NCBI GenBank assembly: GCA_965204725.1
Contig: OZ242005.1
Location: 2,112,001 to 2,176,000, forward strand
DNA: 64,000 nt
Origin: Candidatus Latescibacterota bacterium
GTDB lineage: Bacteria > Latescibacterota > UBA2968 > UBA8231
Reading direction: 5' to 3'
Below the pieces are notes generated by a model. It had not been told where the DNA came from. It did not search any database and was given only the letters and a program-made list of their open reading frames with translations. Shown here piece by piece: positions 75-40,328 of the stretch (position 1 is its first letter; every line of letters begins with the position of its first letter). Position numbers and translations under genes: made by a program.

Positions 75-872
75 ATGAAAGCGCTCGCAGTTCGCACCCT
101 GTACTGGGCCTTTGCCGCAACTTGGCTGTACTGCCCCGGCAAGGCAATCGCCGAGACCAAAAGCCAATACGGCGGCTTTTCGCCCGATAGTCTTCAAGTC
201 TTCTACGACTACATTCACGGCCAAGAGCTGATGCCGGTCGAAGCGGGGCCTCCATTGCGGCAAGCCGTAGAGGCCGTGCCCATTGAGCTGGGTACGGCTA
301 TTGAGCTAGAGCAAGAAGCCGAACTACGCGACTGGCTCTACGACTTCTTGGTCGCCTTTTCAGCTTCGGGCAACGATAGTCTAGCTGCCACCTTCTATCT
401 ACGTGAAAGAGTTAAGAACCCAGACCTAAAGATAAAGCGTGGCATTCCAGAATTATTTGAAAAGGTCAAAGCCGAATACCAAAAAACACGCGCAGATCTA
501 GACTGCGACTACTTTTTTGCCAATGTATCTTTCTTGGATAGTGAGTTCAGGGTATTCGACATGCGGAAACAGTACGATAGCTATCAATCCTATGCCCAAA
601 CCCACGGTATGCTTCCCAAGGGTCACACCACTATAACGCTCCCATTGCGCCAAGAAATCGAAACGCGCCTAGCGGAAGGCGAGCAGATGGTCTTCGCCGA
701 CATCATGTTCATCGTCGAAGAGCCAGAGGAGTTCACCGCATTTGAGACGCCGGGACGCACCCCATCCTTTTTCCGGCTCGTGTGGGACCCAGAGCGGGCC
801 GTGTGGCGATACGTAGAAGCCTTTTTCAGTACTGGCGTACCACAAACACAAATGTTTCTGTTAGGCATGTGA
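75..872 (+). CDS. Family X secreted protein, copy 1 (uncharacterised)
   Basis: AGGAG RBS at 63-67, signal-peptide-like N-terminus, motifs QYGGFS, LRDWLYDFLVAFS, FIVEEPEEF and RLVWDPE shared with the other paralogs in the window. Confidence 0.85.
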   Translation: MKALAVRTLYWAFAATWLYCPGKAIAETKSQYGGFSPDSLQVFYDYIHGQELMPVEAGPPLRQAVEAVPIELGTAIELEQEAELRDWLYDFLVAFSASGNDSLAATFYLRERVKNPDLKIKRGIPELFEKVKAEYQKTRADLDCDYFFANVSFLDSEFRVFDMRKQYDSYQSYAQTHGMLPKGHTTITLPLRQEIETRLAEGEQMVFADIMFIVEEPEEFTAFETPGRTPSFFRLVWDPERAVWRYVEAFFSTGVPQTQMFLLGM

Positions 873-945
873 TAGCTCCTCCAGCTAAACATGTTCCGCA
901 AAAGCGGAGATAGAAGCCCTGCGCCGCCACCAACCGCCGCACAAG

Positions 946-1122
946 TGCGACATTTCGACGCATTTGTGCGATATATCCGCGCACTTTTGGGCCATCAAGC
1001 GGGTGCGGCAAAAGGCTCGATAAAATTATCATTACTTTCACAATCCATTATTTAACAGACACTTAGATCAGTTTTAACCGCCCGTTTACAGCCGCTATCC
1101 CACGGCAGGCACGATATTTGCA
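946..1122 (+). promoter_or_regulatory. sigma54 promoter cassette 1
   Basis: TGCG-N9-CGCA at 946-962 and 967-983, AT-rich spacer, AGGCACGATATTTGCA at 1107-1122 (GG-N10-GC). Confidence 0.75.
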
Positions 1123-1173
1123 TATAAGCTAGCAGAAGCGATACCCTGCACCCTTTGACGAAAGCAGCGCGCT

Positions 1174-3353
1174 ATGCTAGCACAACTCAACAAAAAGCTG
1201 TGGGATTGGTGGACCGTTTGGAACGCCTTTCTCGCCAAAACGGAGGTGAAGGCAACCCTCCAGCGCGACCAGCATCGCCTCCTCGTCTTCTTTCACGGCT
1301 ACAGTTTGGCCCACACCATTCGCCCGCTCGTGATAGCGCGTGTGCTGCGCGCGCGTTTTTGCTGGCCGATGTGCCTCAATTCCATCCGTCGGCCGGGCCG
1401 GTGCCGGCTTCCCATCACTACGTCGGGCCGCTCGTCGAAGACGAGCCGGTAGCCGACGAACCACCCGCAGCACTCGCGGACGCTGGCTGGAACACCGCGC
1501 TGCCCCTCATCTACTTCAATGCGGGCAGCACGGGCGTAGATGACCGCTTTCTGCCCGCCATCCTGCGGGCCTTGGCCCCGTTGCCCTACCGCCTGCTAAT
1601 CACGACGGCCGGCCGCTATGCGGTGGAAGCCCCCTCGGACAACGTGCGGATCGTCGAGTACGTGCCCGCCCGCTTGGCCATGCGCCAAGCCGCGCTCTTT
1701 ATCGGCATTGGCGGCATTGGCTCCATTTACCACGCGCTGGCCGAGGGCGTACCCATCATAGGCGCACCCGAACACCTCGACCAAGAGTACCACCTCAACC
1801 GAGTGCGCGACCTCGGCTTGGGCCTAAAAATGCCGCGCCAGTGCTTTGCCCAAGCGAGAGACATTATCCAGCAGGTGCGCTACCTATTCGACCACTACGA
1901 GGAATTCAGCACCGGCTGTGCCGCCTTTGCCAGCCATATATCCGCCTATAAAGGCGGGGACATCGCCGCGGATGTGATCGACGAGTTGCTCTATCACAAA
2001 GACCCGATTGAGCAGGACAACATGGTGTCAGAGGACGAATTCATCCGCCATCTCTATCCCCTGAACACCACCGCTTCGCTACCGACCCTCCGCGCCCTAC
2101 TCGCCGCGGCGCGCCAGCGAGGCATACCTCATGTGCGACAGGGACGCATGGTGTGGTACAACAAGCGCACCTCGTGGAACTGGCTCTACGACCACGAGCC
2201 GCGCTTCTTCGAGTTGGATTATCAAATGCGGGAAAGGATGCGGGCGTCGTTTCTCGCGCATCGCAACGACCAGCTAAAGGCACGCCAATCTAGCCAGCGC
2301 TACCGATTGACGTACACCTACAAGGCGCACATCGCCGCTTGCGAGGCCACTCCATCGGCACAGCTTTTCTTGCCCTATCCCCTGCGCTTGGCACAACAGC
2401 CCGTCGTCGAGTTACTCGACTGCAATCCAAGTGAGTTGCGCCCGTATCTGGCTCCCCACGCCGGCTTCTTCTACGCCTATCCCTGCTCTATTGAGCCAGC
2501 CGATGGGACGCTGGAATTCTCGTATTCCTGCGAGGTTGAGGTGCATAGCTTACCCATGGCCGGTTGCGTTCCCACGCCGCTAACGCCGAGCGAGCACCGC
2601 CATTACACCCAAGTAGAAGACTCCTTGCGCCGGTCGCGGCTGGTGCGGGACGTTCTCGCCGGTTTGCAGCTCGACGAACCGAACCTGAGCGATGTTGCGA
2701 AGGCGCGCCGCTTGTACGAGCACCTAGTGCGGAGCAAGCGCTTTCAGAAAACCAACGAAAAGTGCCAGTGCTTGGGATGTAGCACGGCCATGACGCTCCG
2801 CGACGACAGCGGCCACTGCATTACCCTGAGCCGCACCTATATGGCCCTGTGCCGTCTGTTGGGCATCCCAGCCCGCGAGGCAACCGGCGGCTTGGCGGTC
2901 GCGCCGCAAGGGCCGGACCGCTATGGCATTAGCACCTATGACCTGCCCATCTTCGGCCACACTTGGATAGAGCTATACACGAGCGAGACCGGCTGGTTGC
3001 CAGTGGAATTTCACGGCATCGCCTTGGGCCGCCATGCCATGACTGCGGATAACGTCGCCGATCCCTTGCTGCGCCAGCGCATTGAGGGGCACAGCGAGGC
3101 GTTTCTCGAGTACTACTTCGGCCACCTAGACTGCCACCGGATAATGTGCTCCAAGTCGGTCGTGGACATTCCGCAACTCATGGTGCCCAACCCCAACGCT
3201 GCGACTGAACCCCACTGGCCCCTGACCATACCCGAAGGACTACACTACGAATGCCATTTGACCCTTGCCTCCCTCTCCCATTCCTCCCCCCTCGGGGGGG
3301 AGTTGCCGCCCCCGGCGGCAGTGGGGGGCCTACCTCGGAGGAAAACCCCATGA
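1174..3353 (+). pseudogene. Glycosyltransferase (GT-B)-transglutaminase-like fusion with an internal deletion and frameshift
   Basis: The N-terminus (MLAQ...VFFHGYSLAHTIRP) is in one frame and the remainder (LLADVPQFHPS...GHCITL...GHTWIE) is in another. About 400 nt present in the paralog at 31415 are missing at a GCGCGCGC run near 1350. Confidence 0.75.
3284..3330. repeat. GC-rich double-hairpin element, copy 1
   Basis: CTCCCCCCTCGGGGGGGAG followed by GCCGCC..GGCGGC and TGGGGGGCC; near-identical copy at 16101-16146. Confidence 0.7.
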
Positions 3354-4405
3354 CCCCCGATATCTCCGTCGTCATTGCCACCCACAACCAGCGGGCGCGG
3401 CTGCGCTTGGTGTTGTGCGGCTTGGCTTGCCAGCATTTTCCCAAGGATCGTTTTGAGATCATCGTCGTTGACGATGGCTGTACCGATGGTACGGACGCCA
3501 TGCTGGCCGCTGAATATCCAGAAGTACACGTGGTGAAGATGCGGCCTAACGTGGGGCGCTGCCGGGCGCGCAACGCCGGCGTCGAACAGGCACAGGGCGC
3601 GTTGGTCGCCTTTCTCGACGGCGACGCCTTGCCGCATCCCAATTGGTTGGCGCGGCTCTGGGCGGAATGGGAGCGCGGAGGACGCCAGCGCTATGTGTGC
3701 GGCTTCCTGTATAGCCTGCCGCTCATCGAGTATCTGCCCGATCCGCAGCAGGCCGTCTTTGACTCCGAGCGCACCCCGAGCGTTGTGGCCGACTTTCTGC
3801 TAATCAATCAAGAGCAGGTGTTGATTACCCAAGACCAAATTCGCCACGATTTTGCCGGTATCCACGCCCGCGCTCAGGAAGGCGGCTATCCCTTTGACGA
3901 ACTCAAGACCATGCAGGATCAGGTCGCGGAACTGTACGCGGCGCATCCCGACTCGCCCGTGGGCTTTCTCGGCTTTTATCCGCACAACAGCGCGGTGCCG
4001 CGTCAAGCCTTCTGTGAGGTGGGTGGCTTTGCGGCGGACATTCCGTTTTCCGAGGGGTGGGATTTGGCCTATCGGTTGCAGCGCGCTGGCGTCGGCCCGG
4101 GCTTTGCCCGCCACGCCTTGACCTATCACTTGTACCACTATCACGAGTTTTCCGATCCGAGCAAACTCGCTGACGAGCAGCGCACCCGGGTGCAAGCCAT
4201 TGACTACATGGCGCGGGCAAACCGCGACCCCAAGCTGTGGTTGATCGAATTGTGGCGGGCGGGCATCTGGCCCGATCCGCTCATGCCTGACCAACTGGTC
4301 TTGCGCGACCTGTTGCACTTTCACGAGCGGTATGGCGAAGTGCAGCCCGACGAGATGACCGAGATAGAAGCCTTGCTGCGGCGGCATCCCGCCCAAGCGG
4401 CCTGA
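3350..4405 (+). CDS. Glycosyltransferase family 2 protein
   Basis: ISVVIATHN, IVVDDGCTDGT, ARNAG and FLDGD motifs; ATGA overlap with the upstream stop. Confidence 0.9.
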   Translation: MTPDISVVIATHNQRARLRLVLCGLACQHFPKDRFEIIVVDDGCTDGTDAMLAAEYPEVHVVKMRPNVGRCRARNAGVEQAQGALVAFLDGDALPHPNWLARLWAEWERGGRQRYVCGFLYSLPLIEYLPDPQQAVFDSERTPSVVADFLLINQEQVLITQDQIRHDFAGIHARAQEGGYPFDELKTMQDQVAELYAAHPDSPVGFLGFYPHNSAVPRQAFCEVGGFAADIPFSEGWDLAYRLQRAGVGPGFARHALTYHLYHYHEFSDPSKLADEQRTRVQAIDYMARANRDPKLWLIELWRAGIWPDPLMPDQLVLRDLLHFHERYGEVQPDEMTEIEALLRRHPAQAA

Positions 4406-4424
4406 GATCGGGGCGTTGTCTTAG

Positions 4425-4623
4425 TGCGATGATTTGACGCATTTGTGCGATGTATCCGCGCACTTTTAGGCCGTCAAAAGGGCTACACAAAGAGCGCAAG
4501 CGGCGAGTGAGAAAATTTTTATTATTATTATAAATCGTTTTTTAACAATTAGTTATGATAAATAAAACCAAACATATCAGCGCGATTATCACCTGCTGGT
4601 CACTCATTGGCACGATAATTGCG
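4425..4623 (+). promoter_or_regulatory. sigma54 promoter cassette 2
   Basis: TGCG-N9-CGCA at 4425-4441 and 4446-4462; TTGGCACGATAATTGCG at 4607-4623. Confidence 0.85.
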
Positions 4624-4684
4624 ATAATACTTACTGAAACAACAACCCGCCCTCGTCCACAGCAACAGAAAGGAGGGAACGCTT

Positions 4685-4783
4685 ATGAAGCACATCGTCT
4701 CAACTGGCTTGGGGCTTGCGGCCCTAGTAGCCAGTGCTTCACCTCGGAGATCGCCTCCGAGAGAACTTAACAAACCTAAGTAA
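4685..4783 (+). other. 32-codon upstream ORF or vestigial leader (MKHIVSTGLGLAALVASASPRR...)
   Basis: GGAGG RBS, leader-like start, homologous DNA at 11550-11648. Confidence 0.35.
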
Positions 4784-4794
4784 AGGAGTTCGTC

Positions 4795-4958
4795 ATGAAG
4801 ACGCGCATCATCCGGCTCGCCATTGGCCTCACGGCCTTGGTCGCCAGCTTCCTCCCGCAGAAGGCCGAGGCACTTTGCATCGCGGTCTGCTGGGGGGCGT
4901 CTGCTGGGGGGATATCTGCGGCTGCGTAAACGATAAGCCCATTTGCATTGACGGCTAA
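4795..4958 (+). CDS. Cys-rich secreted peptide precursor 1, frameshifted in a G6 run (restored core LCIAVCWGGVCWGDICGCVNDKPICIDG)
   Basis: AAGGAG RBS; leader MKTRIIRLAIGLTALVASFLPQKAEA matches the precursor at 11660 at 25 of 26 residues. As written it stops at 4929; one extra G restores a 6-Cys core ending at 4958. Confidence 0.75.
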
Positions 4959-5012
4959 TGCATTAATCCGGGATGGTGGCTTAATCGCCGCTACCCTGGA
5001 GCAACCCCCTAC

Positions 5013-5047
5013 CGGCGGCGAGTGGTTTAGCCAACCACTCGCCGCCG
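5013..5047 (+). terminator. Perfect 15-bp stem hairpin after precursor 1
   Basis: CGGCGGCGAGTGGTT-TAGCC-AACCACTCGCCGCCG; no U-tract on the + strand. Confidence 0.55.
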
Positions 5048-5081
5048 AAACAACGACAAACCCGATAATAAGGAGAATACC

Positions 5082-5912
5082 ATGAAACTCTTAGCCATTC
5101 GCACCCTGTCTTTCGCTCTAGTCGCCGCTTGGCTCGCTGTCGCCAGCGCAGCCGCGGCCGATCCGAAGCCCCAGTACGGCGGCTTTTCGCCCGATGCCGA
5201 GGGGCGCCAAGCCTATCTCGACTACATCCACAGCTTGGACATGATCGAGATCGAGGCCGGCCCCGAATTGCGGAGCACTGTTGAAGCTATCCCCGTTGAG
5301 GCGGGCGTCGCCCTCACCCCCGCGCAAGAAGCCGGACTGCGCGACTGGCTCTACGACTTCTTGGTCGCCTTCTCCGTCTCCGGCAATGACAGCCTCGCCG
5401 CTGCCTTTTACCTGCGCGAGGGCATCAATAACCCCGACAGGGTAGAGCAACTGAAAAAGATGCTTGCGAGCAAAGAGACCCTAAAAGGCGATACGCCCTT
5501 TGCAGCCTTCAAAGCCGCGCACAGAGAAAACCTCGACTTTAAGGGGCGCGATTATTTCCTCGGAAACGCGTCCTTTTTCGACAGTGTGTACCGAGTGTTT
5601 GAAAAGCAAGGAGGGTATGAAAGCTATATGGAATACGCCAAGACCCACGGCCTGCTTCCCACGGGCTTGATGGCGTGGCCCCCCAAGCTGATGAGCGAGG
5701 TTACGAAAGCACTGCAAGCGGGCGAGCAGCGGGTCTTGGCCGAGGTCCTGTTCATCGTCGAAGAGCCCGAGGAGTTCGCCGACTTTGAGGGGTCAATCCG
5801 CACCCCGTTTTTCGTGCGACAGCTCTGGGATCCGGAGCGGAGTATGTGGCGCTTGGTAGAAATTTTCACGTCAAATAACGCGCCGGTTATGTTCTCGTTC
5901 ACCGGCATGTAA
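5082..5912 (+). CDS. Family X secreted protein, copy 2
   Basis: RBS, signal peptide, family motifs. Confidence 0.9.
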   Translation: MKLLAIRTLSFALVAAWLAVASAAAADPKPQYGGFSPDAEGRQAYLDYIHSLDMIEIEAGPELRSTVEAIPVEAGVALTPAQEAGLRDWLYDFLVAFSVSGNDSLAAAFYLREGINNPDRVEQLKKMLASKETLKGDTPFAAFKAAHRENLDFKGRDYFLGNASFFDSVYRVFEKQGGYESYMEYAKTHGLLPTGLMAWPPKLMSEVTKALQAGEQRVLAEVLFIVEEPEEFADFEGSIRTPFFVRQLWDPERSMWRLVEIFTSNNAPVMFSFTGM

Positions 5913-5953
5913 CCCGGCCTTGCCACAAACCACTACTTACTGGAGGAAATACC

Positions 5954-6778
5954 ATGAAAAAGCGGACCATCCACGCCCTGTATTTCGCCCTACTCGCCAT
6001 CTGGTCCGGCCTCGCCAGCGTAGCTGCGACCAAGCCCCAGTACGGCGGCTTTTCGTCCGATGCCGAGGGGCGTCAAGCCTATCTCGACTACATCCACAGC
6101 TTGGAGATGATCGCGGTCGCGGCCGGTCCCGAATTGCGGAACGCGGTCGAAGCTATCCCCGTCGAGGCGGACGTCGCCCTCACCCCCGCGCAAGAAGCAG
6201 GGCTACACGACTGGCTCTACGACTTCTTGGTCGCCTTCTCCAGCTCGGGCAGCGACAGCCTTGCCGCGGCCTTTTACCTGCGCGAGGGCGTCAATAACCC
6301 CGATGGGGTAGAGGAACTAAAAAAGGAGCTTGAAGCCAAGGGGCTCCTAAAAGGCGATACGCCTTTGGCTATCTTCCAAGCTGGGCACAGAGAAATGCTC
6401 AACAGGAATGAGCGCGACTACTACTTGGAAAAGGTGTCCTTTTTCGACAGCGCGTTCAAGGTGTCCAAAATGCAGGCGGAATACAGTGCTTATGTCATAT
6501 CCCTTATGATCCACCGCATGGTGCCCAATATGAATCTATCGACTTCCACCTCCAAGCTGATGAGCGAGATTGCGGAAGCACTGCAAGCGGGCGAGCAGTG
6601 GGTCTTTGCCGAGGTCCTGTTCATCGTTGAAGATCCCGAGGAGTTCGCCGGGTTTGAGGGGCCGGGGCGCAGTGCGTTCTTCTTCCGGCTGGCTTGGGAC
6701 CGGGAGAAGGCTATGTGGCGCCATGTAGAAAGCGTTTACGGCCTCGGGACGCCGTATTTTCTGTTCAACTCCACATAA
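5954..6778 (+). CDS. Family X secreted protein, copy 3
   Basis: GGAGG RBS, signal peptide, family motifs. Confidence 0.9.
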   Translation: MKKRTIHALYFALLAIWSGLASVAATKPQYGGFSSDAEGRQAYLDYIHSLEMIAVAAGPELRNAVEAIPVEADVALTPAQEAGLHDWLYDFLVAFSSSGSDSLAAAFYLREGVNNPDGVEELKKELEAKGLLKGDTPLAIFQAGHREMLNRNERDYYLEKVSFFDSAFKVSKMQAEYSAYVISLMIHRMVPNMNLSTSTSKLMSEIAEALQAGEQWVFAEVLFIVEDPEEFAGFEGPGRSAFFFRLAWDREKAMWRHVESVYGLGTPYFLFNST

Positions 6779-6837
6779 TTGGGCCTTGCGACAAACCTGC
6801 GCCCGATGCTTCTAACTATCCACATAAGGAGGATACC

Positions 6838-7656
6838 ATGAAACCCTTATTCATTCGCGTTCTGTATTTCGTCCTAATCGCCGTCGCCAGCGCAGCTATA
6901 GCCGATCCCAAACCCCAGTACGGCGGCTTTTCGTCCCACCCCGATAGCCTCCAAGTCTTCTACGACTATATCCACGGTCAGGAGATGATGAAGGTTGAGG
7001 CTGGCCCCGAATTGCGGAGCACCGTTGAGGCCATCCCCGTCGACTTGGCCGCTCCCATCGATCTGGAGCAAGAAACCGGGCTACGCGACTGGCTCTACGA
7101 CTTTTTGGTCGCCTTTTCGGCCTCGGGCAGCGATAGCCTCGCCGCCGCCTTTTACCTCCGCGAAGGTGTCAATAACCCCGACATGATAGAGGTACTAAAA
7201 AAGTATCTCGATCGCAGAGATACTCTAACAGGTGATACGCCCTTTGCCATTCTTGCAGCCGGACATAGGAACATACTCGGCTCGGCGAAGCGCGACTACT
7301 TTTTTGAGAACGTGTCCTTTTTCGACAGCGTGTTCAAGGTGTTTGAGATGCAGGAGGAATACGATAGTTATGCGTTCTACCTCCAAACGCACGGCATGAT
7401 CCCCAGAGGCACCTTGAAGTTTCACCTCAAACTCCAAGACGAGGTGGAGGAAGCACTACAAGCGGGTGAGCCATTGGTTTTTGCCGACATCATGTTCATC
7501 GTCGAAGAGCCAGCAGGGGTCTCCGATTGGTCGTGGCAGGGGCGCACCCCGTCCTTCTTCAGACTAGTCTGGGATCCAGAGCGGGCTATGTGGCGCCATG
7601 TAGAGGTCTATTTCAGCCGTGGCGTCCCCCAGGACTTTCTGTTCAACGTCATGTAA
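6838..7656 (+). CDS. Family X secreted protein, copy 4
   Basis: Start moved to MKPLFIRV after AGGAGG; family motifs. Confidence 0.9.
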   Translation: MKPLFIRVLYFVLIAVASAAIADPKPQYGGFSSHPDSLQVFYDYIHGQEMMKVEAGPELRSTVEAIPVDLAAPIDLEQETGLRDWLYDFLVAFSASGSDSLAAAFYLREGVNNPDMIEVLKKYLDRRDTLTGDTPFAILAAGHRNILGSAKRDYFFENVSFFDSVFKVFEMQEEYDSYAFYLQTHGMIPRGTLKFHLKLQDEVEEALQAGEPLVFADIMFIVEEPAGVSDWSWQGRTPSFFRLVWDPERAMWRHVEVYFSRGVPQDFLFNVM

Positions 7657-7687
7657 CCCACCCTTTACCACTCGCAGGAGAAAAATC

Positions 7688-8629
7688 ATGAACAAGCTAA
7701 CGCTAAAAGCAGCGGCCGTAGCCGCCGTGCTCTACACGGGCTGGACTCATGCCGACGAACTGCCGCAGACCGCCGAGTACGGCACCACCTACGACAGCGA
7801 GGGCACGGCTGGCGAGGTGCGCTTTGTCGCGCCCTACGACATGGAGATCGTCTCAGTCGAACCCGGCTGTGGCTGCACCGGCGTCGAGTACCCGCAAGGG
7901 CTGTTGAAGGCCGGCGAATCCTACGCCATTTCCTACCAGATCGACACTCAGGGGCGCTCCGGGGTCTTTGCCTCCAGCATTGACTTTAGTGTAGCAGACC
8001 GCGCCGACAAATGGCAGTTGCGATTGGAAGGCCAAGTCGTGCCCATGCTGCCCAGCAAATTGCACCTAGGGACAATACAAGGCGACGACTTGGCCTCCAT
8101 GCGCCGACGCATTCCCCTCGTGCAGATCGACGGACAACCGCGACACCTTCGCCAAGTCCAAGTCGTGGGAAAAGGCATAGAGGCATCGGTGATAGAAGGC
8201 GGCACCGCCCTAGCGATCACCCCGGCAGCGGACCTGACGTGGGGCAATCGGATCATCGCCACCCTTGAAGCGACGATTGCCGGTGAGGACGAAGAGTATT
8301 CTCGTTCCATCCAAGTGCGCGGACAGGTCAGCCCCCGCTTTAGCCTAGAGCCACAAAGCGCGTCCTTCGGCGTAGGTGCAGCGCAACGGCGCGAGACGCT
8401 CCAAGTGCGCGTAGGCTTGCCAGCCGAGTTCGCCGACGCGCCCATACAGGCGTCGCCTGTGTGCGACGAGGTGCAATTCGACATCGCATACCAACGGGAA
8501 GCCGACCACAGCGTAGTCGTCCAGATCCGCAACGCGAGCGACTTCCCCGCTGGTACGCTTCACTGTGGGGTCGCGGTGCAAATCGGCGCAGAGCAGGTGC
8601 TGATACCCGTGCTAGCCTTAACGCGATAA
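7688..8629 (+). CDS. DUF1573-like secreted Ig-fold protein
   Basis: Signal peptide, IVSVEPGCGCT motif; paralog at 30464. Confidence 0.8.
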   Translation: MNKLTLKAAAVAAVLYTGWTHADELPQTAEYGTTYDSEGTAGEVRFVAPYDMEIVSVEPGCGCTGVEYPQGLLKAGESYAISYQIDTQGRSGVFASSIDFSVADRADKWQLRLEGQVVPMLPSKLHLGTIQGDDLASMRRRIPLVQIDGQPRHLRQVQVVGKGIEASVIEGGTALAITPAADLTWGNRIIATLEATIAGEDEEYSRSIQVRGQVSPRFSLEPQSASFGVGAAQRRETLQVRVGLPAEFADAPIQASPVCDEVQFDIAYQREADHSVVVQIRNASDFPAGTLHCGVAVQIGAEQVLIPVLALTR

Positions 8630-8639
8630 GGAGGCGACC

Positions 8640-9644
8640 ATGAAACCGCCCAAAACAACCAAGGCGTGGTCCCATCTCAAACGGGGCCATGCCTGCCGCA
8701 AAAAGGGGCAGCGCGAGCAAGCGGCCACTCATTACCAAACAGCGCGGCGGCTCTTTCGCGCCGGAAAGTGCCAAAAGGGGCTTTTTGAGGCTTGCACCCA
8801 ACTCGGCCACCACTGCGAGATCGCCAGCGACCTCGACCCATCGCTGCAATACTTCCAAGAGGCATTGGCCGCCTGCTCACCGAGCCGATCTCTGAGCGAC
8901 ACAGCCGAGGCCGAAGGCAACGTCGGCTTCATCAAACAAAGCCAAGCCCGCTTTGCCGAAGCTGCAACGCACTACCGCAAGGCCATGCAGTACGCCCAAC
9001 AAGGCGGCGATGCCGCCCTCGCGGCCAAGATGGCCAACAACATGGGCAACCTCTACATGCAGCAGAACGACTTGGAGGAGGCTCAACAGTGGCTCCAGCG
9101 CAGCCTCGCCCTCTATGACAACGATGTGCCGGGCAACCTGCTCAACGGCTTGGGGCAACTGGCCCTGCGCCGCGGCGACCCCGAACAGGCCCTGCACCAT
9201 TTTACGGCTGGACTCGCGACAGCCCGGCAGCAAGGGACGCCCCTTGAAGTGGCCCTGCAACTTGGTTCTATCGCCTCGGTCTGCCGCGACTTAGGCCATA
9301 TAGACCGCGCCTTGAGCAGTGGCAACGAAGCCCTGAGCATCTACGTGGCGCAAGGGCATGCCCACGGTCGCTGTAGCATGGCGTCGCTGCTGGCCGATCT
9401 CTACATGACCGCCAGCGACCTAGCGATGGCACAACGACATCTACAGGTTTCTATGGACCTGTGCCATCAGTTAGGGGACGCGCGGGTGCAGGCTTTTAAT
9501 CACGTGTCCTTGGGCAATCTGTACGCGCAACAGGACAGCGACAAGCGGCGGGCGTTGGCCGAATGGATAGCGGCATTGCGCCTGTTTAAGCAACTTGGTA
9601 TGGAAAGGCAGAGCCAAGCGGTCATTAGGGCCATGGCCGCGTAG
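8640..9644 (+). CDS. Tetratricopeptide repeat protein
   Basis: Repeated NLG/NMG..Y...A...Y..AL helical TPR pattern; no signal peptide. Confidence 0.85.
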   Translation: MKPPKTTKAWSHLKRGHACRKKGQREQAATHYQTARRLFRAGKCQKGLFEACTQLGHHCEIASDLDPSLQYFQEALAACSPSRSLSDTAEAEGNVGFIKQSQARFAEAATHYRKAMQYAQQGGDAALAAKMANNMGNLYMQQNDLEEAQQWLQRSLALYDNDVPGNLLNGLGQLALRRGDPEQALHHFTAGLATARQQGTPLEVALQLGSIASVCRDLGHIDRALSSGNEALSIYVAQGHAHGRCSMASLLADLYMTASDLAMAQRHLQVSMDLCHQLGDARVQAFNHVSLGNLYAQQDSDKRRALAEWIAALRLFKQLGMERQSQAVIRAMAA

Positions 9645-9686
9645 CCAAGGCAATAATCCACTCCTCGAACCCACAGGAGCCGCGCC

Positions 9687-11258
9687 ATGATCGGCATTGT
9701 GTTCAAGAAAGAGATGCTCAGCCATCTGCTCAGCCAGCGCTTCGCCGCTTGCACCGCCCTCGCTGTGGTGCTCATCATCGCCAATGGTATGCTCACCAGC
9801 CAGATTTATGTTCAGAAAAAGGCCAGCTATCTCACGCAACGCGCCGTTGAGGAGACCAAACTGCCCGAAATCACGTACTATTCGGTCCTAAGCTCGGGCA
9901 CCAACAGATCCGGCAGGTCTCCACTCCGCGACAAGGCGGCCCCGCGTGCCTTACGACCCCCGCGTCCCTTAGAGGTGTTTGCCCAAGGCGTCGAACAAGA
10001 GGTGGGACAGGCCGTCGAGGTCCTGCTCTTTGAGGTGCCCTACCAAGCCGAGTCGATCAAGTCCTCCGAGTCGATCAATCCCTACCTCGCCATCTTTGCC
10101 TCCTTCGATGTGGTGTACATCTTCCAACTCGTGCTCAGCCTGCTGGCCATCCTCATCGCCAGCGAGACCATCTCCGGCGAAAAGGAGGACGGCACCCTGC
10201 GGCTGATGCTGACGACCAACGTCAGCCGCGCCCAAGTCCTCGCCGGCAAAATCCTCGCTGGCCTGACCACGCTGGCCATTCCCACCGCTCTCGGCTTTAT
10301 CCTGCTGACGATCTTGCTGTTGGGCACGGAGTATATCGAAGTCGGGAGCGGCGAGTGGGCGCGGTTGGGGCTGCTGTTCGCGCTGTCGCTTTTGTATCTG
10401 CTGGTGTTCTATCTGATTGGGTTGGTGATCTCGTGCGCCACGCATCGCTCGGCGACCAGCTTGGTCGTCGCGCTGTTTACGTGGGCCTTGCTGGCGATTG
10501 TGCTGCCCGACAGCATCACGGCCTTGCTCAACGAGCAGGCCAACATGGGCGCAAAGCACAAGCAAGCTCATCACAAGGCCGCGCAGGTGTGGAATAAGTT
10601 CGATCAGGAGGCCATCGACCTCGCTCGGGCGCACGGCCAGATCACGTACCCTCCCATAGGGATGGTTGAACGGTTCATGCACCCGGTTTACGGAATGACA
10701 GACCACGTTGCGGGAATAGGCATGTACTCTTATGGGAACGAGCAGATACCCACTCTCCACCTAAGTGGTGTCGTCGATTCGCCCTCGCTCGCCGAGTTCC
10801 AAGACATCATCCGCACCGGCGAGCGGTTGCGCCTGAAGTACGCCCAGCGCGCGTGGAACGCCAAAGCCCCCCTGCTCGAAGGCTTCCCCCGCCGCATCCA
10901 ACGCTGGAATAGCTGGCTCCAACGCCTCCTGCCCCCCGGAGCGTATGCGCAAGCCGCCAGTACCTTCGCCGGCACCAGCCGACGAGAATACTACGACTTT
11001 ATCGACCAAGTCCGCTCCTATCGCGGGCAAATCATCGCCTTTGTCGAAGAGCGCGATGCCTTTGGCTCCCGCGAGTGGTTCAACGACGATCCCGGCTGGC
11101 GCGCCGACTTGCGCGACCTACCGCGGTTTAACGAGCGCGGTTGGACCGTCGCCAAGGGGCTGAGCCACGCCTTGCCGGATCTAACGGCCCTGCTGCTGTA
11201 TGCGACCGGGCTCTTTGTCCTCGCCAACCGACTCTTTGGGCGCTACGACGCCAAATGA
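9687..11258 (+). CDS. ABC-2-type transporter permease, subtype A1
   Basis: KKEML start, ISGEKEDGTLRLML, GKILAG, multiple TM segments. Confidence 0.9.
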   Translation: MIGIVFKKEMLSHLLSQRFAACTALAVVLIIANGMLTSQIYVQKKASYLTQRAVEETKLPEITYYSVLSSGTNRSGRSPLRDKAAPRALRPPRPLEVFAQGVEQEVGQAVEVLLFEVPYQAESIKSSESINPYLAIFASFDVVYIFQLVLSLLAILIASETISGEKEDGTLRLMLTTNVSRAQVLAGKILAGLTTLAIPTALGFILLTILLLGTEYIEVGSGEWARLGLLFALSLLYLLVFYLIGLVISCATHRSATSLVVALFTWALLAIVLPDSITALLNEQANMGAKHKQAHHKAAQVWNKFDQEAIDLARAHGQITYPPIGMVERFMHPVYGMTDHVAGIGMYSYGNEQIPTLHLSGVVDSPSLAEFQDIIRTGERLRLKYAQRAWNAKAPLLEGFPRRIQRWNSWLQRLLPPGAYAQAASTFAGTSRREYYDFIDQVRSYRGQIIAFVEERDAFGSREWFNDDPGWRADLRDLPRFNERGWTVAKGLSHALPDLTALLLYATGLFVLANRLFGRYDAK

Positions 11259-11293: not shown

Positions 11294-11500
11294 TGCGATG
11301 TTTAGACGCATTTGTGCGATATATTGTCGCACTTTTAGGCCGTCAAACGGACCTCGCAAAGGGCCTGAGAGACTATTTGGGGAGACGGACAATAAAAATT
11401 TACCTTTATAAATCATTGTATAACAATGAGATAAGAAGAATACAATAAAAAAATAAGCGCGATTGACGGCTACCGGCCGCTCATTGGCACGATAATTGCA
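11294..11500 (+). promoter_or_regulatory. sigma54 promoter cassette 3
   Basis: TGCG-N9-CGCA at 11294-11310 and 11315-11331; TTGGCACGATAATTGCA at 11484-11500. Confidence 0.85.
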
Positions 11501-11549
11501 ATAAGTCTTACAGAAGCAGCAACCCACCTAAAAAACGGAGGTACGGCTT

Positions 11550-11648
11550 ATGAAGCACATCGTCTCAACTGGCGCGGGGCTTGTCCCTAGCGGCCAATAC
11601 TTCCCCTCGGAGATCGCCTCCGAGAGAACGCAACACACCTTAAAGTAA
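11550..11648 (+). other. 32-codon upstream ORF or vestigial leader (MKHIVSTGAGLVPSGQY...)
   Basis: GGAGG RBS; homologous to 4685-4783 but the internal reading frame differs. Confidence 0.3.
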
Positions 11649-11659: not shown

Positions 11660-11845
11660 ATGAAGACGCGCATCATTCGGCTGGCCATTGGCTTCACGGC
11701 CTTGGTCGCCAGCTTCCTACCGCAGAAGGCCGAGGCTTTTCGTTATTGCAGCAAAGGTTGCCCGAATGGTACTTGGTGCGAGGCAATCGGCTGGAAGGTC
11801 AGTTGCACGTGCGACGCAAACGGTAACGCGGTATGCAGCGTCTAA
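11660..11845 (+). CDS. Cys-rich secreted peptide precursor 2 (core FRYCSKGCPNGTWCEAIGWKVSCTCDANGNAVCSV)
   Basis: AAGGAG RBS, conserved leader ending AEA, 6 Cys. Confidence 0.85.
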   Translation: MKTRIIRLAIGFTALVASFLPQKAEAFRYCSKGCPNGTWCEAIGWKVSCTCDANGNAVCSV

Positions 11846-11962: not shown

Positions 11963-12787
11963 ATGAAAACTTTGTATTTCGCCCTAATCGCCGCGTGGTT
12001 CGCGGCCTCCAGCGTCTCTGCCGAGCCGAAAGGCCATTTCGGCGGCTACTCCATGCACCCCGACAGCCTCCAAGCCTCTCATCAATCCTTTCTCGATTAT
12101 GTCAACAGCTTGGAGATGATAAACGTCGAGGTCGGGGACGAGTTGCAGCAGGCCATCGCCGGCATCCCCGTCACGGGGGACACCCCCATCACTCCGGCGC
12201 AAGAAGCCGACCTGCGCGCTTGGCTCTACGATTTCTTAGTCGCCTTTTCGGTTTCGAGTAGCGACAGCCTCGCGGCCGCGTTTTACCTCCGCGAAGGCGT
12301 CAATAACCCCGAAGGGATAGAGAAGCTAAAAGATCAGCTTGCAAGCAAGGGCCTCCTAAAAGGCGATACGCCTTTTGACATCCTCAAAGCGGGACACCGG
12401 CAACTCCTCGACGAGTATGAATACGAGTACTACTTGGGAAAGGTGTCCTTTTTCGACAGCGCGTTTGAGGTGTCCGAGTTGCAGGCCAAGTATAGCCGTT
12501 ATTTCGAGTCCCTCATGAGCCGCGGCATGCTCCCAATCGGGTCCTATTCGGGTGTTGAAGCCAAAATGAAGAGCGAGGTCCATGAGCACATACAGGCGGG
12601 CAAACCGCAGACCTCTGTTGAGTTCATCTGCATTATCGAAGAGCCCGAGGAGTTCGCCTCCTTTGAGGGGGTAAAGCGCGTCCCGTTCTTCTTCCGCATG
12701 GCTTGGGACCCAGACAAGGCTATGTGGCGTCTTGTCGAGCTCTATTACGGCTTCGGGGTGAAGTATTTTCTGTTCAGTGCGACCTAG
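11963..12787 (+). CDS. Family X secreted protein, copy 5
   Basis: Signal peptide and family motifs. Confidence 0.9.
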   Translation: MKTLYFALIAAWFAASSVSAEPKGHFGGYSMHPDSLQASHQSFLDYVNSLEMINVEVGDELQQAIAGIPVTGDTPITPAQEADLRAWLYDFLVAFSVSSSDSLAAAFYLREGVNNPEGIEKLKDQLASKGLLKGDTPFDILKAGHRQLLDEYEYEYYLGKVSFFDSAFEVSELQAKYSRYFESLMSRGMLPIGSYSGVEAKMKSEVHEHIQAGKPQTSVEFICIIEEPEEFASFEGVKRVPFFFRMAWDPDKAMWRLVELYYGFGVKYFLFSAT

Positions 12788-14447: not shown

Positions 14448-14499
14448 GACGGCCCGGTATTTTCTGTTTTGCCGCTGACTCTAAAAAAGGAGGCCCTCA

Positions 14500-16146: not shown

Positions 16147-16147
16147 G

Positions 16148-16346
16148 TGCGACAATTCGACGCATTTGTGCGATGTATCCGCGCACTTTTAGCGCATCAA
16201 CAGGGCATCGCCAAGGACCTGAGAGACGAGTAAGAAAATTATCTTATTTTTTACAAAGCATTGTTTAACAGGTATTTAGATATATAAAATCAAAAAAGTC
16301 AGCGCGATTGGTGACCGTTGGGTCACTCATTGGCACGATAATTGCA
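16148..16346 (+). promoter_or_regulatory. sigma54 promoter cassette 4
   Basis: TGCG-N9-CGCA at 16148-16164 and 16169-16185; TTGGCACGATAATTGCA at 16330-16346. Confidence 0.85.
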
Positions 16347-16394
16347 ATAATACTTACCGAAGCAACAACCTCGCTCTTCCATAAGGAGAATGCC

Positions 16395-17306: not shown

Positions 17307-17354
17307 CTCAGAGATCGCCCCCGAGACTACACTAGAACCCACAGGAGCCACGCC

Positions 17355-23686: not shown

Positions 23687-23753
23687 TCAACGCGACCGAG
23701 GCGGTCTCCAAGCTAGCCCGAAGGCCGCTTCAATTAACCCAAGGAGCTGCGCC

Positions 23754-25515: not shown

Positions 25516-25713
25516 TGCGACAATTCGACGCATTTGTGCGATGTATCCGCGCACTTTTAGCGCGTCAACAGGGCTTTGCCAAGGGTTTGCAAGACGGGCG
25601 CGAAAATTATCTTATTTTTTACAAAGCATTTTATAACAGATAGTTACGATCATCATCCCAAAGAAATCGGCGCGATTATCACCCGCTGGCCGCCTGTTGG
25701 CACGATAATTGCA
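25516..25713 (+). promoter_or_regulatory. sigma54 promoter cassette 5
   Basis: TGCG-N9-CGCA at 25516-25532 and 25537-25553; TTGGCACGATAATTGCA at 25697-25713. Confidence 0.85.
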
Positions 25714-25838
25714 ATAATACTTGCTGAAACAGAGACAACCTTAAAGAAGGATTCATCGCAATGCTAGCAGCTATTGCAAAACTCAAACCAGTTGCCCCCC
25801 CTCAGCGGCTCCTACGGACTGCGGAAAGGAGTGTAATT

Positions 25839-27350: not shown

Positions 27351-28744
27351 CTGCCTATCGATTGGCCTTAGCCGCCCTCGGCTGCTGGGCGAGCGCCCTC
27401 TGCGCCGAGGAGTGGGACCTAACGACCTGTCAGCGCGCTGCCGGCCAGCACAGCCCGGTGATCGAGGCGGCGCGCGCCCGCTGGAACAAGATGCAGGCGC
27501 GCACCCGCCTCGACGTGGCCGAGCAGCTGCCGGACATCGGCCTCGCGGCCCAGTACGAGCGCAGCGAATTAGCCGACGCGAGCGAGCCGGAGGCCGACCA
27601 ACGCGAGCTTTTCTTGGAAGCCCGGCAAGAGCTCTTGCGCTACGGAGCCACCACCCCAACGCGCTTTGCCGCCCAGCACCGCGAGCAGGCGGAAAAGGCG
27701 CGCTACCGCGAGGCCATCATCGACGTGGATAGCCAAGTGCGCCAAGCGTATTACCGCCTGCTGCTGACACGCGACGAAATCGCCAACCGCGACGAGTTGC
27801 TCGCTTACTTCCGCGCCAAAATGGACCGGGTGCAAACGCGCCTCAACGCTGGCTTGGCCCGGCCGGTGGAGCTGTACGAGGCCGAGCTCGAAGTGCTAGA
27901 GGAGCAGTCGCGGATCAACAACCTCCAGCGCACGCTGCGCGCCCTGCATCTCAAGCTCTTCACCGAGATCGGCCTCGTGGGCAAACGCTCGCTCCGCGCC
28001 CTTGAGATCGTCGGCCCGCCCTACGAGCAACTCCAGCTACTCGACCCCGGCGAAGCGGACCTGCCCGGCCTGATTGAGGAAGCCCGCGCCAACCGACCGC
28101 AACTGGACGAACTCGTCTGGCAAATCGGCCAGCAGCAGCGGCAGGCCCGCAGCGTGTTGTGGCAATGGGGACCCCACGTCGGCCTGCAACTGACCAAGGA
28201 CTTCCAAGATGCCGACCTCGGCTTGGACTGGAGCGGCAACGGCCAGACTTGGAAGCTGGTGGGGTCGGGTCGCCGGTCGCTGGCCAGCCGGGGTTTGCCC
28301 CCCGAGCTGGACGCGGGCGAGGGCTGGCGGGTGATGGCCAACGTGTCGCTGCCCCTGTTCCAAGGGGGTCGGCGGCTGGCCCAGCGCGCCGAGGAGAACG
28401 CGCGGCTCCGCGAGTTGCACCAAAACCGCGACGAGACCCGCCACTTGATCGAACTCGAAGTGGTCGAGGCGTTTTACGACTTGAAGAGCCGGCAGGAAAA
28501 CACCCAGATTCTGCGCCGCCGCGCCGATGTGGCCCGCCAGCGGCTAGACACGGTCGAAGAGCTGTTTGAAAACGCCATGGGCAACCTCAACTTCGACGAC
28601 ATCCGCCGCCAGCGGGTCGCCATCAACCTAGCCGAGCAGAGCTACTTTGCCGAGCGCTTGGCTTACATCCTCGCGGCCGAAAAGCTGCGGCGGATACTGG
28701 GCCGAGCGCTCAACAGTGAGTTTTACCAAACCCGTGATCAGTGA
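27347..28744 (+). CDS. TolC family outer membrane protein
   Basis: Signal peptide, VRQAYYRL, LNAGLA, VSLPLFQGGR and VVEAFYDL motifs. Confidence 0.9.
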   Translation: MTAYRLALAALGCWASALCAEEWDLTTCQRAAGQHSPVIEAARARWNKMQARTRLDVAEQLPDIGLAAQYERSELADASEPEADQRELFLEARQELLRYGATTPTRFAAQHREQAEKARYREAIIDVDSQVRQAYYRLLLTRDEIANRDELLAYFRAKMDRVQTRLNAGLARPVELYEAELEVLEEQSRINNLQRTLRALHLKLFTEIGLVGKRSLRALEIVGPPYEQLQLLDPGEADLPGLIEEARANRPQLDELVWQIGQQQRQARSVLWQWGPHVGLQLTKDFQDADLGLDWSGNGQTWKLVGSGRRSLASRGLPPELDAGEGWRVMANVSLPLFQGGRRLAQRAEENARLRELHQNRDETRHLIELEVVEAFYDLKSRQENTQILRRRADVARQRLDTVEELFENAMGNLNFDDIRRQRVAINLAEQSYFAERLAYILAAEKLRRILGRALNSEFYQTRDQ

Positions 28745-28785
28745 TCGCTGACCACAAACCACAACCACGAAGAAAGGATCGCCTC

Positions 28786-38013: not shown

Positions 38014-38020
38014 ACGCACC

Positions 38021-39490
38021 ATGCTGACGACGATTATCAAACGGGAATTTATCGCCCATCTCCAAAGCCTGCGGTTCAGCTTGGTGCTGGTGCTGTGCGT
38101 TGGCTTGATGGTGCTCAACGCGCTCGTCCTCGTCCACAGCACCTATCAATTCGAGCAAGATGCCTACATAGAAAACACCTCCCAGCAACACCAAAGGCTG
38201 CGCGATAATGGCGCCGCCGGTCTGTGGAAGCTCCTGCTCGCAGGGCCTGGGGTGCTTTATAAGCAACCTAGCGAATTGGCGTTTTGCGCTGGTTTCGCCG
38301 ACAACAAATTGCCTGACAAAGTAGAGGCTAAAGCGGACCTGATCTACATGATGTCAACTGTTATCGGAGGTAAGAGCATTGATAAGAGTTTCTATTGGCC
38401 GTGGATTCTATCTTTTTCGGCCGAACTAAAGGACACTCCACTACTCTCCATCTTCATCACCGTTGACTGGGTCTTTATCATCGGCATCTTGCTGAGCTTG
38501 GCCGCCTTCCTGTTCACCCACGACGCCATTGTCGGCGAAAAGGAGAGCGGCACCCTCAAGCTGGTCATGGCCAACAGCCTGCCGCGCCACACGCTATTGT
38601 GGGGCAAGTTCTGGGGCGCGATGATGGTCTTGATCGGGGTGCTGCTCCTCAGCGTAACTCTCAATTTGTTGATCGTCTTGATCCTCGCCAACCTATCGCT
38701 GGATTCCTCACACGCCGGGCGCATCGCAGTCATGGTCTTGATCTCGGGGGTCTATCTGGCGGGCTGTACCGCGCTGGGGTTGCTCATATCGGCGCGTAGT
38801 GCTACTAGGCGAGGCAGCCTGACGGCGGTGCTCTTCGTCTGGGTGGGTATGGTTTTGCTCTGGCCGCAGATGGGCAAGACCATCGCCGAGCTATTCCACG
38901 AAGAGGTACATGAGTTAGAACACACCAAGTACGTATATGAGTACGGCGACGGCTCTTTCACTTGGCATCCGATTCGGGGACGCGCCTTCAGTTTGGCGCA
39001 AGAGGGCGACCGGCTCGATCCGACGTTTATCAAGGAGTTTTCGAACGCGTTGCGAGAAGAACGGGCGCACCATCAAGAATTAGCAAATGCCCTGATGCGG
39101 CGTCGGGTACAACAGGTCAATTTAGCCCAAAACATCGTCCGGGTCTCTCCCATGGGCACCTACCAATACGCAATGGAGGCAATGGCGGGAACGGGCCTAC
39201 CGCGCTATCGGCATTTCGTCGATCAAGCGAGGAATTACGCCCAGCGTTTTGAGAGAACCCTGCTCGCCATAGACCGAGCCGACTGGCGCAGTCCACACGT
39301 TCCGCTTGTAAAGAATGGGCTGTCCGCGCAAAAGGTAGAGTTGGAGCAAATACCCGTATTTGCCGAAGACCTCTCGGCCACGTCGTTGGCTGGCTCAGCC
39401 GTCGTCGATTTGGTTTTGCTCGGCTTCTTTGCCGTGTTCACCTATCTGGCCGCATACTTGGTCTGGCTGCGCTCGTCGATTGCCGACTAG
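38021..39490 (+). CDS. ABC-2-type permease, subtype B4 (divergent)
   Basis: IIKREF start, IVGEKESGTLKL. Confidence 0.9.
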   Translation: MLTTIIKREFIAHLQSLRFSLVLVLCVGLMVLNALVLVHSTYQFEQDAYIENTSQQHQRLRDNGAAGLWKLLLAGPGVLYKQPSELAFCAGFADNKLPDKVEAKADLIYMMSTVIGGKSIDKSFYWPWILSFSAELKDTPLLSIFITVDWVFIIGILLSLAAFLFTHDAIVGEKESGTLKLVMANSLPRHTLLWGKFWGAMMVLIGVLLLSVTLNLLIVLILANLSLDSSHAGRIAVMVLISGVYLAGCTALGLLISARSATRRGSLTAVLFVWVGMVLLWPQMGKTIAELFHEEVHELEHTKYVYEYGDGSFTWHPIRGRAFSLAQEGDRLDPTFIKEFSNALREERAHHQELANALMRRRVQQVNLAQNIVRVSPMGTYQYAMEAMAGTGLPRYRHFVDQARNYAQRFERTLLAIDRADWRSPHVPLVKNGLSAQKVELEQIPVFAEDLSATSLAGSAVVDLVLLGFFAVFTYLAAYLVWLRSSIAD

Positions 39491-39500
39491 GGGTACAGTC

Positions 39501-40328
39501 ATGCCAATCCTTCTCGCGTTGGTGCTTTCATCCGGCATCGCCCACGCGGCCAGCCCCCCGTCGTTGGCAGTATCCTTTTCCAACTACGGATGGCAACTCG
39601 TAGATCAGGACGAAGACCATGCGGTCGCCTTGGCTTGCTTTCAATGGCGGCTGGGGCATCAATGGCAGGGTCGCCGCGACACCCTGGCGGCGGCTCTGTC
39701 CTACAAGCGCATTCGCTTGCACCAAAAGGCATATAATGGCGGTAGAAATGAGCTATTCAAGTATTCGTCCTCTTTTGACAGGAACACCACCTTCTACTCG
39801 ATGCCATTTGAATTCCGTTGGACGCGCCGCTGGAGTCAATCGTGGGCAACCACCCTACGGTTGACGCCAGCCCTTACCGCAGAGGATTTTGCCGATGAGA
39901 ATCGGTCCCCGATCTGGGGCGAGCTATGGGTGCGGCACAAGGGACTTGGTTTGGGCGTAGGCCGCCTTGAGGTATCGGGTCGGTTGCGCTGGTGGCCGTT
40001 GGTGAGCGTCCGCCACCAATGGCGTGGCATCCGCGTCGAGGGTCTGTTCCCGCGCTATCTCGAGGTGCAAAAGGGTTGGCTGAAACTAAAAGCTCGCCTT
40101 GAGGGGGCTACTTATCTAATAGAAGATTGGGATACCTTCCAACCGCTGTATTTTTCGCACTTGGCGTTGGGAGCGGCTCTGCTTGTGTCGGAAGGATCAC
40201 TGGCGACTGCTTTTGAGATAGGACGATCCGTGCGACGGCGGTTTGAAGTGGCGGGATCCAAATACTATCAGTATCAGACCATTGATAATGGATGGTATAT
40301 TCGCACCAACCTGAGCTACGCGCCCTAA
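39501..40328 (+). CDS. Putative outer-membrane beta-barrel protein
   Basis: Signal peptide MPILLALV..AHA, aromatic-rich alternating strands, C-terminal WYIRTNLSY. Confidence 0.6.
   Translation: MPILLALVLSSGIAHAASPPSLAVSFSNYGWQLVDQDEDHAVALACFQWRLGHQWQGRRDTLAAALSYKRIRLHQKAYNGGRNELFKYSSSFDRNTTFYSMPFEFRWTRRWSQSWATTLRLTPALTAEDFADENRSPIWGELWVRHKGLGLGVGRLEVSGRLRWWPLVSVRHQWRGIRVEGLFPRYLEVQKGWLKLKARLEGATYLIEDWDTFQPLYFSHLALGAALLVSEGSLATAFEIGRSVRRRFEVAGSKYYQYQTIDNGWYIRTNLSYAP

Follow-up and report, generated by a model that had tools for sequence, protein, structure and literature searches.

An apparently undescribed locus of cysteine-rich peptide precursors, secreted partner proteins and variable ABC permeases in a Candidatus Latescibacterota genome

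We analysed a window of 64,000 nucleotides (contig OZ242005.1, positions 2,112,001 to 2,176,000; here G000:C1:2112001-2176000) from a Candidatus Latescibacterota genome of 5.43 Mb in 2 contigs. It contains a locus that combines short cysteine-rich peptide precursors, many copies of a secreted protein that we call family X, two types of ABC permease (A and B) and a set of shared accessory genes. Between 75 and 40328 there are 34 genes covering 91% of the sequence, all 34 on the plus strand, as a first-pass annotation made from the letters alone had stated. They encode nine full and one truncated X, five permeases A and four permeases B, three precursors, two DUF1573 proteins, two fusions of a GT1 glycosyltransferase to a transglutaminase-like domain (GT-transglutaminase) and two GT2 glycosyltransferases. 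A TPR protein, a NEW3-domain protein, an OEP/TolC-family channel, an ABC ATPase, a sigma factor of the extracytoplasmic function (ECF) type and a last secreted open reading frame (ORF) are single-copy. Pfam searches of 54 window proteins, complemented by NCBIfam for 22, confirmed the shared parts named in that annotation, i.e. DUF1573, GT-transglutaminase, GT2, TolC and one ATPase. Rfam gave no match within window positions 1-41000. The features are as follows.

75-872, +: family X, of the clade that follows permease B
946-1125, +: sigma54 cassette with upstream tandem palindrome, AT-rich spacer and the -24/-12 box variant CAGGCAC
1174-3353, +: GT1-transglutaminase-like fusion, broken (frameshift, about 100 residues missing)
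3350-4405, +: GT2 glycosyltransferase (PF00535)
4425-4625, +: sigma54 promoter cassette
4795-4958, +: precursor 1, with a 26-aa (amino acid) signal-type leader and a six-Cys core split between frames at a G run
5082-7656, +: three tandem family X genes (5082-5912, 5954-6778, 6838-7656)
7688-8629, +: secreted DUF1573 protein with a CGC motif, candidate folding helper
8640-9644, +: cytoplasmic TPR protein, distant kin of the TPR found behind GT-transglutaminase/GT2 elsewhere
9687-11258, +: permease A (ABC2_membrane_2, DUF3526-like, NosY-like)
11294-11502, +: sigma54 promoter cassette
11660-11845, +: precursor 2, with a 26-aa leader and a 35-aa six-Cys core, then a strong hairpin
11963-12787, +: family X, clade A1 (the clade behind this peptide type); the copy folded, pLDDT 89
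12876-15942, +: permease A (12876-14447, 97% identical to the 9687 copy) and permease B (14500-15942)
16148-16348, +: sigma54 cassette directly driving X, without a precursor
16395-25325, +: run of X, permease A, permease B, X, permease B, X, permease A
25516-25715, +: sigma54 cassette for the shared exporter genes
25839-27350, +: NEW3-domain protein with signal peptide and hydrophobic C-terminus, candidate adaptor
27347-29508, +: OEP/TolC-family protein (27347-28744) and the sole ABC ATPase (28786-29508)
29607-30414, +: ECF sigma factor (29607-30080), ECF-type promoter (30126) and truncated X (30205-30414)
30464-31378, +: ECF arm, DUF1573 protein
31415-33940, +: ECF arm, intact GT1-transglutaminase-like fusion with Cys-His-Glu motifs
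33955-34983, +: ECF arm, GT2 (PF00535)
35069-36080, +: second ECF-type promoter (35069) and ECF-clade X (35148-36080)
36181-36384, +: precursor 3, with a 26-aa leader and a 41-aa four-Cys core, then a terminator-like hairpin
36502-39490, +: ECF-arm permeases A and B, 40-48% identical to the sigma54-arm copies
39501-40328, +: secreted 275-aa protein, the last ORF (paralog at G000:C1:4011503)

The core span proposed initially thus stands, but its ends do not. The first genes lie outside the window, from 9.1 kb upstream of it: a dCache-HAMP-PAS kinase and an NtrC-type activator, then a sixth sigma54 promoter, an X, a permease A, an insertion sequence and a permease B. At the other end, the last ORF probably lies outside the system; it has no Pfam or NCBIfam match and is found in none of the 18 related regions described below. 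The locus had also been depicted as repeats of a precursor/X/permease unit. X and the permeases do repeat, but most units lack one of the three precursors.

An assembly artefact was considered and rejected. The genome is in 2 contigs, the X copies of the window are 35-66% identical, relatives assembled as single contigs carry up to 15 X matches each, and positions 900-9700 are matched piecewise, with 0 indels, by contigs of run X1 (which may be the source sample). The frameshift of precursor 1 and the break in the first GT-transglutaminase are real in this strain. The reading frame of precursor 1 shifts at a stretch of G, where run X1 reads as the window and runs X3 and X6, from other studies, have one base more; database homologs include the intact form and a second frameshift at the same spot (P0288, P0313). 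The GT-transglutaminase copy lacks 406 bases that are present after position 1350 in run X6, and X3 carries a further deletion. The near-tandem repeat at 4886-4912 of precursor 1 contains two G runs, and since some strains carry the frameshifted and others the intact allele, the frame could be switched by strand slippage.

A search with the precursor leader profile gave 51 distinct ORFs, 47 of them with at least four Cys. Read from alignments, the leader has 26 residues, with a basic start, a hydrophobic stretch and a P-x-x-A-x-A end, which we take to be the Sec/signal peptidase I pattern. It looks like a Sec signal peptide. None of the 47 leaders ends in a double-glycine type motif (GG/GA/GS), in line with the first-pass annotation. 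A strong hairpin lies 3' of 36 of the 47 precursors, against 8 of 50 X genes, and would favour an excess of precursor. A database search gave 139 matches; six Cys, with a spacing mostly of 3-4-8-1-6/7, are present in 110 of the 120 matches listed. The 105 six-Cys cores that could be parsed are all different, with a median length of 33 aa and a median net charge of -3, and across the system the cores have six or four Cys and are acidic and hypervariable. Their Cys counts are nearly always even, leaving no free thiol. In type-A peptides (n=13) the ratio of non-synonymous to synonymous substitution rates (dN/dS) is 0.31 in the leader, 0.92 in the core and 1.10 in the core without Cys. No known family was found for the precursors: the profile matched only fibrillin EGF domains in the PDB (E 1.4 and 3.8, not significant) and Pfam EGF matched 1 of 23 members, weakly (E 0.16). 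The cores may be glycosylated; Ser or Thr occurs in 103 of the 105, at no fixed position and with no acceptor position conserved, and the Notch-type O-fucose/O-glucose consensus was searched for and discarded (0/105). Cross-linking of the core by the transglutaminase domain, suggested at first, is not supported, because only 17 of 105 cores contain a Gln as well as a Lys. One genome of the genus (G012) has a sole precursor (L105:12677-12875) with TGA exactly at the second Cys, either a nonsense change or selenocysteine; G000 itself carries a tRNA-Sec.

Precursors and X are neighbours. X lies directly downstream of 24 of the 47 precursors and directly upstream of 16, with 7 having neither, so that 40 of 47 adjoin an X gene. 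Family X is secreted, genus-confined among the genomes searched and has no Pfam or NCBIfam family: it was found in 24 of 30 other genomes of the genus against 0 of 30 outside it. In a profile search of 1.84 billion representatives there were 58 matches; the weak ones are mostly fragments, with P0143, P0161 and P0178 being long. Searches of Pfam, NCBIfam and Atlas gave X no known family (best 0.89, unnamed clusters) and mapped it to no characterised unrelated function. A fold model built from 121 sequences reached pLDDT 89 and pTM 0.86 (a 9-sequence model reached pLDDT 68). Nearly all of its top 50 structure matches are NTF2/cystatin-like and Foldseek returned none with E below 0.001; an elaborated NTF2-like shape is a lead from this model.

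The 142 X proteins form clades, assigned by hand on the tree, with stable gene positions. Of 14 contexts of clade A1, 10 have a precursor in front; clade A2 is followed by permease B in all 9 of its cases, and 16 of 19 ECF-clade X stand before a precursor. Identities of peptide core and adjacent X covary (rho 0.39, 23 pairs, p 0.0005), as do those of X and the next permease (0.49, n=18; 0.58, n=13). Clade A1 evolves fastest of five groups (dN/dS 0.43 vs 0.22-0.37). Fifteen orphan X genes have a dN/dS of 0.22. G000 shares one orphan site, which follows a large peptidase gene, with three other genomes.

All nine window permeases match PF12679 and none matches FtsX or MacB_PCD. Their best PDB match is NosY (7o0y, E 1.5e-7), and their variation sits in soluble loops rather than in membrane segments. 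The channel belongs to the TolC family (PF02321, E 1.5e-35), and NEW3 is the only domain of the 503-aa NEW3 protein. A homolog of the latter is present in 77 of 168 genomes of the phylum, i.e. the exporter is phylum-wide. Its neighbours in other genomes are HEAT lipoproteins, a serpin, DsbA-like proteins or radical SAM/S8 genes, or it stands alone behind a kinase/activator pair. At L124 and L130 it alternates with HEAT-repeat/CBM9 lipoproteins, as X does in the sponge locus. In another family a small Cys-rich ORF without Pfam match (L129:16102-16509) adjoins the exporter and a DsbA-like gene.

The DUF1573 protein carries a CGC motif in 20 of 20 copies. A UGC selenoprotein form of DUF1573 is listed in two reviews (PMC9312934, PMC13188914), and together these would point to redox chemistry. 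The GT-transglutaminase has a wider range than X. It is present in 33 of 132 genomes of the class, all of the same family as G000, and the copies linked to X form two separate, well-supported clades. In X-free metagenome loci, GT-transglutaminase, GT2 and TPR lie between a sigma54 activator and a kinase. Seven of the eight such loci checked have, just upstream, a nearly Cys-free ORF of 79-84 aa with a signal-like start, and the eighth has an ORF containing Cys and His. The order in these modules is activator, 80-aa signal-peptide ORF (Trp and Pro near its C-terminus), GT-transglutaminase, GT2, TPR and kinase, with the ORF at L109:9746-9982, L110:4072-4308, L112:2778-3020, L113:9626-9877, L116:8978-9220, L118:1425-1676 and L121:229-474. 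The module may be a separate peptide signalling system. The leaders of the Cys-free precursors gave no match to the sponge leader profile (<=0.2 bits). Three other GT-transglutaminase copies exist in G000, one with a secreted Cys/His protein upstream and two without. A third GT-transglutaminase/GT2 locus (G000:C1:4880700-4900400) has repeated secreted Cys/His and large secreted proteins and no X or permeases. Selenocysteine was also considered for GT-transglutaminase paralogs flagged '1 TGA' and rejected, the TGA being a normal stop in the copy checked. The trio thus keeps company with small secreted ORFs of several kinds, and one of the window copies is decaying.

Regulation follows the anatomy in two arms. 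The five sigma54 cassettes and the ECF arm of the first-pass annotation were located: -24/-12 boxes lie at 1108, 4609, 11486, 16332 and 25699, and ECF-type promoters at 30126 and 35069. A 39-nt tandem palindrome upstream of the sigma54 boxes has 6 copies in the 5.4-Mb genome (<=8 mismatches), all inside the locus, and a kinase/activator pair heads 11 of 11 sigma54-type regions. Of the 19 ECF-clade X genes, 17 have an ECF-type promoter in front, against 0 of 123 other X; the pattern behind these counts was set after viewing these sequences, an earlier one having matched 4 of 19. A 32-codon ORF with a strong ribosome-binding site occurs at 4685-4783 and 11550-11648, in the leader of 160-170 nt between sigma54 promoter and precursor; these ORFs resemble a degenerate leader or decoy site.

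Is this arrangement found elsewhere? Co-occurrence of the parts in other genomes had been put forward as a check. Within one genus of sponge-associated Latescibacterota, 12 other genomes have 18 syntenic regions between them, in which the parts recur shuffled and duplicated and which include both sigma54 and ECF arms. We surveyed G000 and 30 other genomes of the genus (31 in total), which are kin and include draft assemblies, so that counts are limited. Precursors occur in 15 of the 31, G012 being counted on its one copy with the stop. DUF1573 is present in 14 of these 15 and in 0 of the 16 genomes without a precursor; the exception, G019, keeps a DUF1573 fragment with a leader fused to its end. 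Four genomes (G003, G022, G023, G030) have X and exporter with no precursor detected, and three of them are single contigs. The mapped loci of G022, G023 and G030 lack DUF1573, TPR and either glycosyltransferase, and those of G022 and G030 are minimal, with X, permease A, permease B, NEW3, OEP and ATPase. In six genomes X occurs alone; in four of these (G001, G010, G011, G021) neither permease A, NEW3 protein nor activator ortholog was found. These patterns look like two layers: one for production, with peptide, DUF1573, TPR, GT-transglutaminase and GT2 (the producer module), and one that persists without peptides, with regulator, X and exporter. The 55 related loci from a genome collection are all labelled as Candidatus Latescibacterota or as Gemmatimonadetes/Gemmatimonadota metagenome-assembled genomes. 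Sequencing runs with at least one third of the sampled words include five labelled as sponge metagenomes and one as a marine metagenome, and no RNA dataset is listed among the runs carrying these words.

The locus lacks a defining feature of each known class with which it was compared. Glycocins of the sublancin type combine a Cys-rich precursor, a GT2, a TPR and an ABC transporter, and their double-glycine leader is cut by a C39-bearing ABC transporter. The present locus shares the first four elements (both GT2 copies match PF00535), yet it has no double-glycine leader in 47, no C39 transporter, Cys counts that are nearly always even and an extra GT1-transglutaminase fusion. LanFEG/LanI and class IIa microcin immunity illustrate how protective genes can be kept without the peptide. 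The likeness to LanFEG/LanI extends to two permeases, one ATPase and an extracytoplasmic partner, but there are no lanthipeptide enzymes here, X is a soluble protein of 250 aa, predicted to be NTF2-like, in up to 16 copies, and the MutG and LanF models match weakly, below cut-off (TIGR03733 16.5 bits vs 117; TIGR03740 148 vs 310). NosDFY (PDB 7o0y) resembles the locus in its permease and in having a periplasmic partner gene beside it, whereas the permeases of the locus have much larger periplasmic loops, form an A/B pair and come with TolC and NEW3 partners and no nitrous-oxide reductase. The closest precedent for the route, from the accessible text, is that of the E. coli toxin STII through Sec, DsbA and MacAB-TolC (PMC5985334), where a signal-peptide precursor yields a small disulfide-bonded product taken from the periplasm by an ABC transporter and TolC. 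Unlike STII export, the locus has NosY-like ABC2_membrane_2 permease pairs instead of MacB, no MacA-family adaptor match, a dedicated DUF1573, the X array, glycosyltransferases and hypervariable multi-copy precursors. Bufferins and other MNIO peptides have, as far as the accessible text goes, a signal-peptide leader and conserved Cys (10.1101/2025.01.10.632315), but neither Pfam nor NCBIfam found an MNIO/DUF692 enzyme in the locus, which also has a tripartite exporter and the X array. The first-pass annotation had seen no C39 peptidase, LanM, YcaO or radical SAM gene, and none of these, nor any lanthipeptide maturase, appeared among the window proteins in either database. We found no description of the system in the open-access literature, most subscription journals and supplements lying outside the search; the accessible part of a paper on sponge Latescibacterota genomes gives antiSMASH classes only (PMC12993501). 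Apparently, then, this is a real, conserved and undescribed system that fits none of the classes tested, with a biochemistry that is predicted. What is categorically new are its parts and layout; in its logic it is like two-step secretion and immunity systems already known.

The initial choice between a peptide pathway and a recognition or immunity array may be a false one, as both look like layers of one system. In the account that we put forward, tentatively and at somewhat less than an even chance, peptides are exported by Sec, folded by disulfides and released through TolC, and X proteins bind them for recognition or immunity. Expression would be switched on by the dCache kinase and the NtrC-type activator, or by the ECF sigma factor in the second arm. 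The precursor would cross the inner membrane via Sec and lose its 26-aa leader, after which DUF1573, with its CGC motif, would aid the formation of two or three disulfides. The folded peptide would then leave the periplasm for the outside through a NosY-type ABC complex (permeases A/B and the one ATPase) together with the NEW3 protein and a TolC-like channel. X proteins would act in the periplasm as binders with an NTF2-like fold; each would be specific for one type of peptide, which it either passes on to the permeases or neutralises. We infer the immunity or recognition role from gene distribution. The additional and orphan X copies would be there for the peptides that neighbouring strains make; competition or kin discrimination among symbiont strains is then the likeliest role. 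The cytoplasmic GT-transglutaminase, GT2 and TPR would belong to the producer module and may glycosylate the precursor.

Several observations weigh against this account. The sole solved relative of the permeases is NosY, whose complex powers a periplasmic step and is not known to export a peptide. The NEW3 protein has no adaptor-family match in Pfam and no sequence match in the PDB. In the 77 genomes the exporter stands beside other secreted proteins, usually without a visible peptide, and peptide-free loci thus need not mean immunity. The assemblies of G003 and of two of the six genomes with X alone are fragmented drafts. The structure matches of X are weak (best Z 6.5, rmsd 3.8, 122 aligned). 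Co-duplication alone could make neighbours covary, and the statistics are inflated by the kinship of the genomes. Core dN/dS is just 0.60-0.69 in four-Cys peptides (n=9; leader 0.52). Finally, the acidic cores differ from cationic antimicrobial peptides and argue against simple membrane-lytic action.

Other explanations share some of this evidence. The peptides could be strain-specific pheromones, with X as receptors, the kinase and sigma54 activator as an autoinduction loop and peptide-free strains as eavesdroppers. The kinase/activator at the head of all sigma54-type regions, a candidate binding site confined to the locus, the retention of regulator, X and exporter in peptide-free G023 and G030, and the small secreted ORFs in the X-free loci between activator and kinase all fit such signalling. 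Yet a single kinase would have to serve many divergent peptides, the ECF arm has no kinase and the orphan X of G001, G010 and G011 lack an orthologous activator; we regard this explanation as unlikely, if worth pursuing. A little less unlikely, in our view, is a broader idea: a new peptide class in which GT1-transglutaminase fusion, GT2 and TPR would modify signal-peptide precursors before Sec, widespread in the lineage with Cys-free precursors, and which in sponge symbionts would have merged with the NosY-type ABC/NEW3/TolC exporter and an expanding NTF2-like receptor array into a polymorphic self/non-self ligand-receptor code for co-resident strains.

The peptides might instead be directed at the host, as EGF-like mimics or protease inhibitors whose diversity tracks the host sponge, with X as a folding or export chaperone. 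The EGF matches to the PDB and Pfam point that way without being significant, the exporter adjoins a serpin in another family, and sponge Latescibacterota are described, in the accessible part of the genome paper, as rich in eukaryote-like proteins (PMC12993501). A chaperone would leave the retention of X and exporter without a detected peptide unexplained, and the proposal seems improbable. To much the same degree we doubt that the ABC complex has X as a structural periplasmic subunit or as its true cargo, by analogy with NosD and NosFY, with peptides as optional passengers. This would suit the minimal loci of G022 and G030, the position of clade A2 before permease B and the HEAT-repeat lipoproteins that alternate with permeases in other genera as X does; but X is under purifying selection in genomes where neither permease nor NEW3 protein was found, and X types covary with peptide types. 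Least probable, indeed very unlikely, are metal-stress peptides whose acidic Cys-rich cores chelate metal for removal by the exporter. Bufferins, according to the accessible text, chelate copper (10.1101/2025.01.10.632315), and the Sec-type leader, the acidic cores and the sigma54 and ECF control would agree with such a role. Yet Pfam found no MNIO enzyme among the locus proteins, His occurs in only 28 of 105 cores, and a core dN/dS of about 1 with a large partner array is unexpected for a fixed metal ligand.

Downstream of the locus, on the minus strand, lie two N6/N4 DNA methylases, HerA, a HAS-barrel protein and NurA (40346-46347), homologs of which also flank some orphan X, and a row of FlgD-Ig and FG-GAP surface proteins (55272-63986).

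The system offers more than 100 natural variants of an undescribed bacterial mini-protein scaffold, predicted to have three disulfides, together with a paired new secreted family. It also provides a candidate substrate for an uncharacterised NosY-like/NEW3/TolC exporter and for DUF1573. A review of sponge peptides traces barrettides to the sponge itself and does not mention Latescibacterota in its accessible part (PMC12426817); these bacteria are a source to consider for sponge cysteine-bridged peptides. If the pairing of X and peptide is true, it would be a way for uncultured sponge symbionts to compete or to recognise kin.

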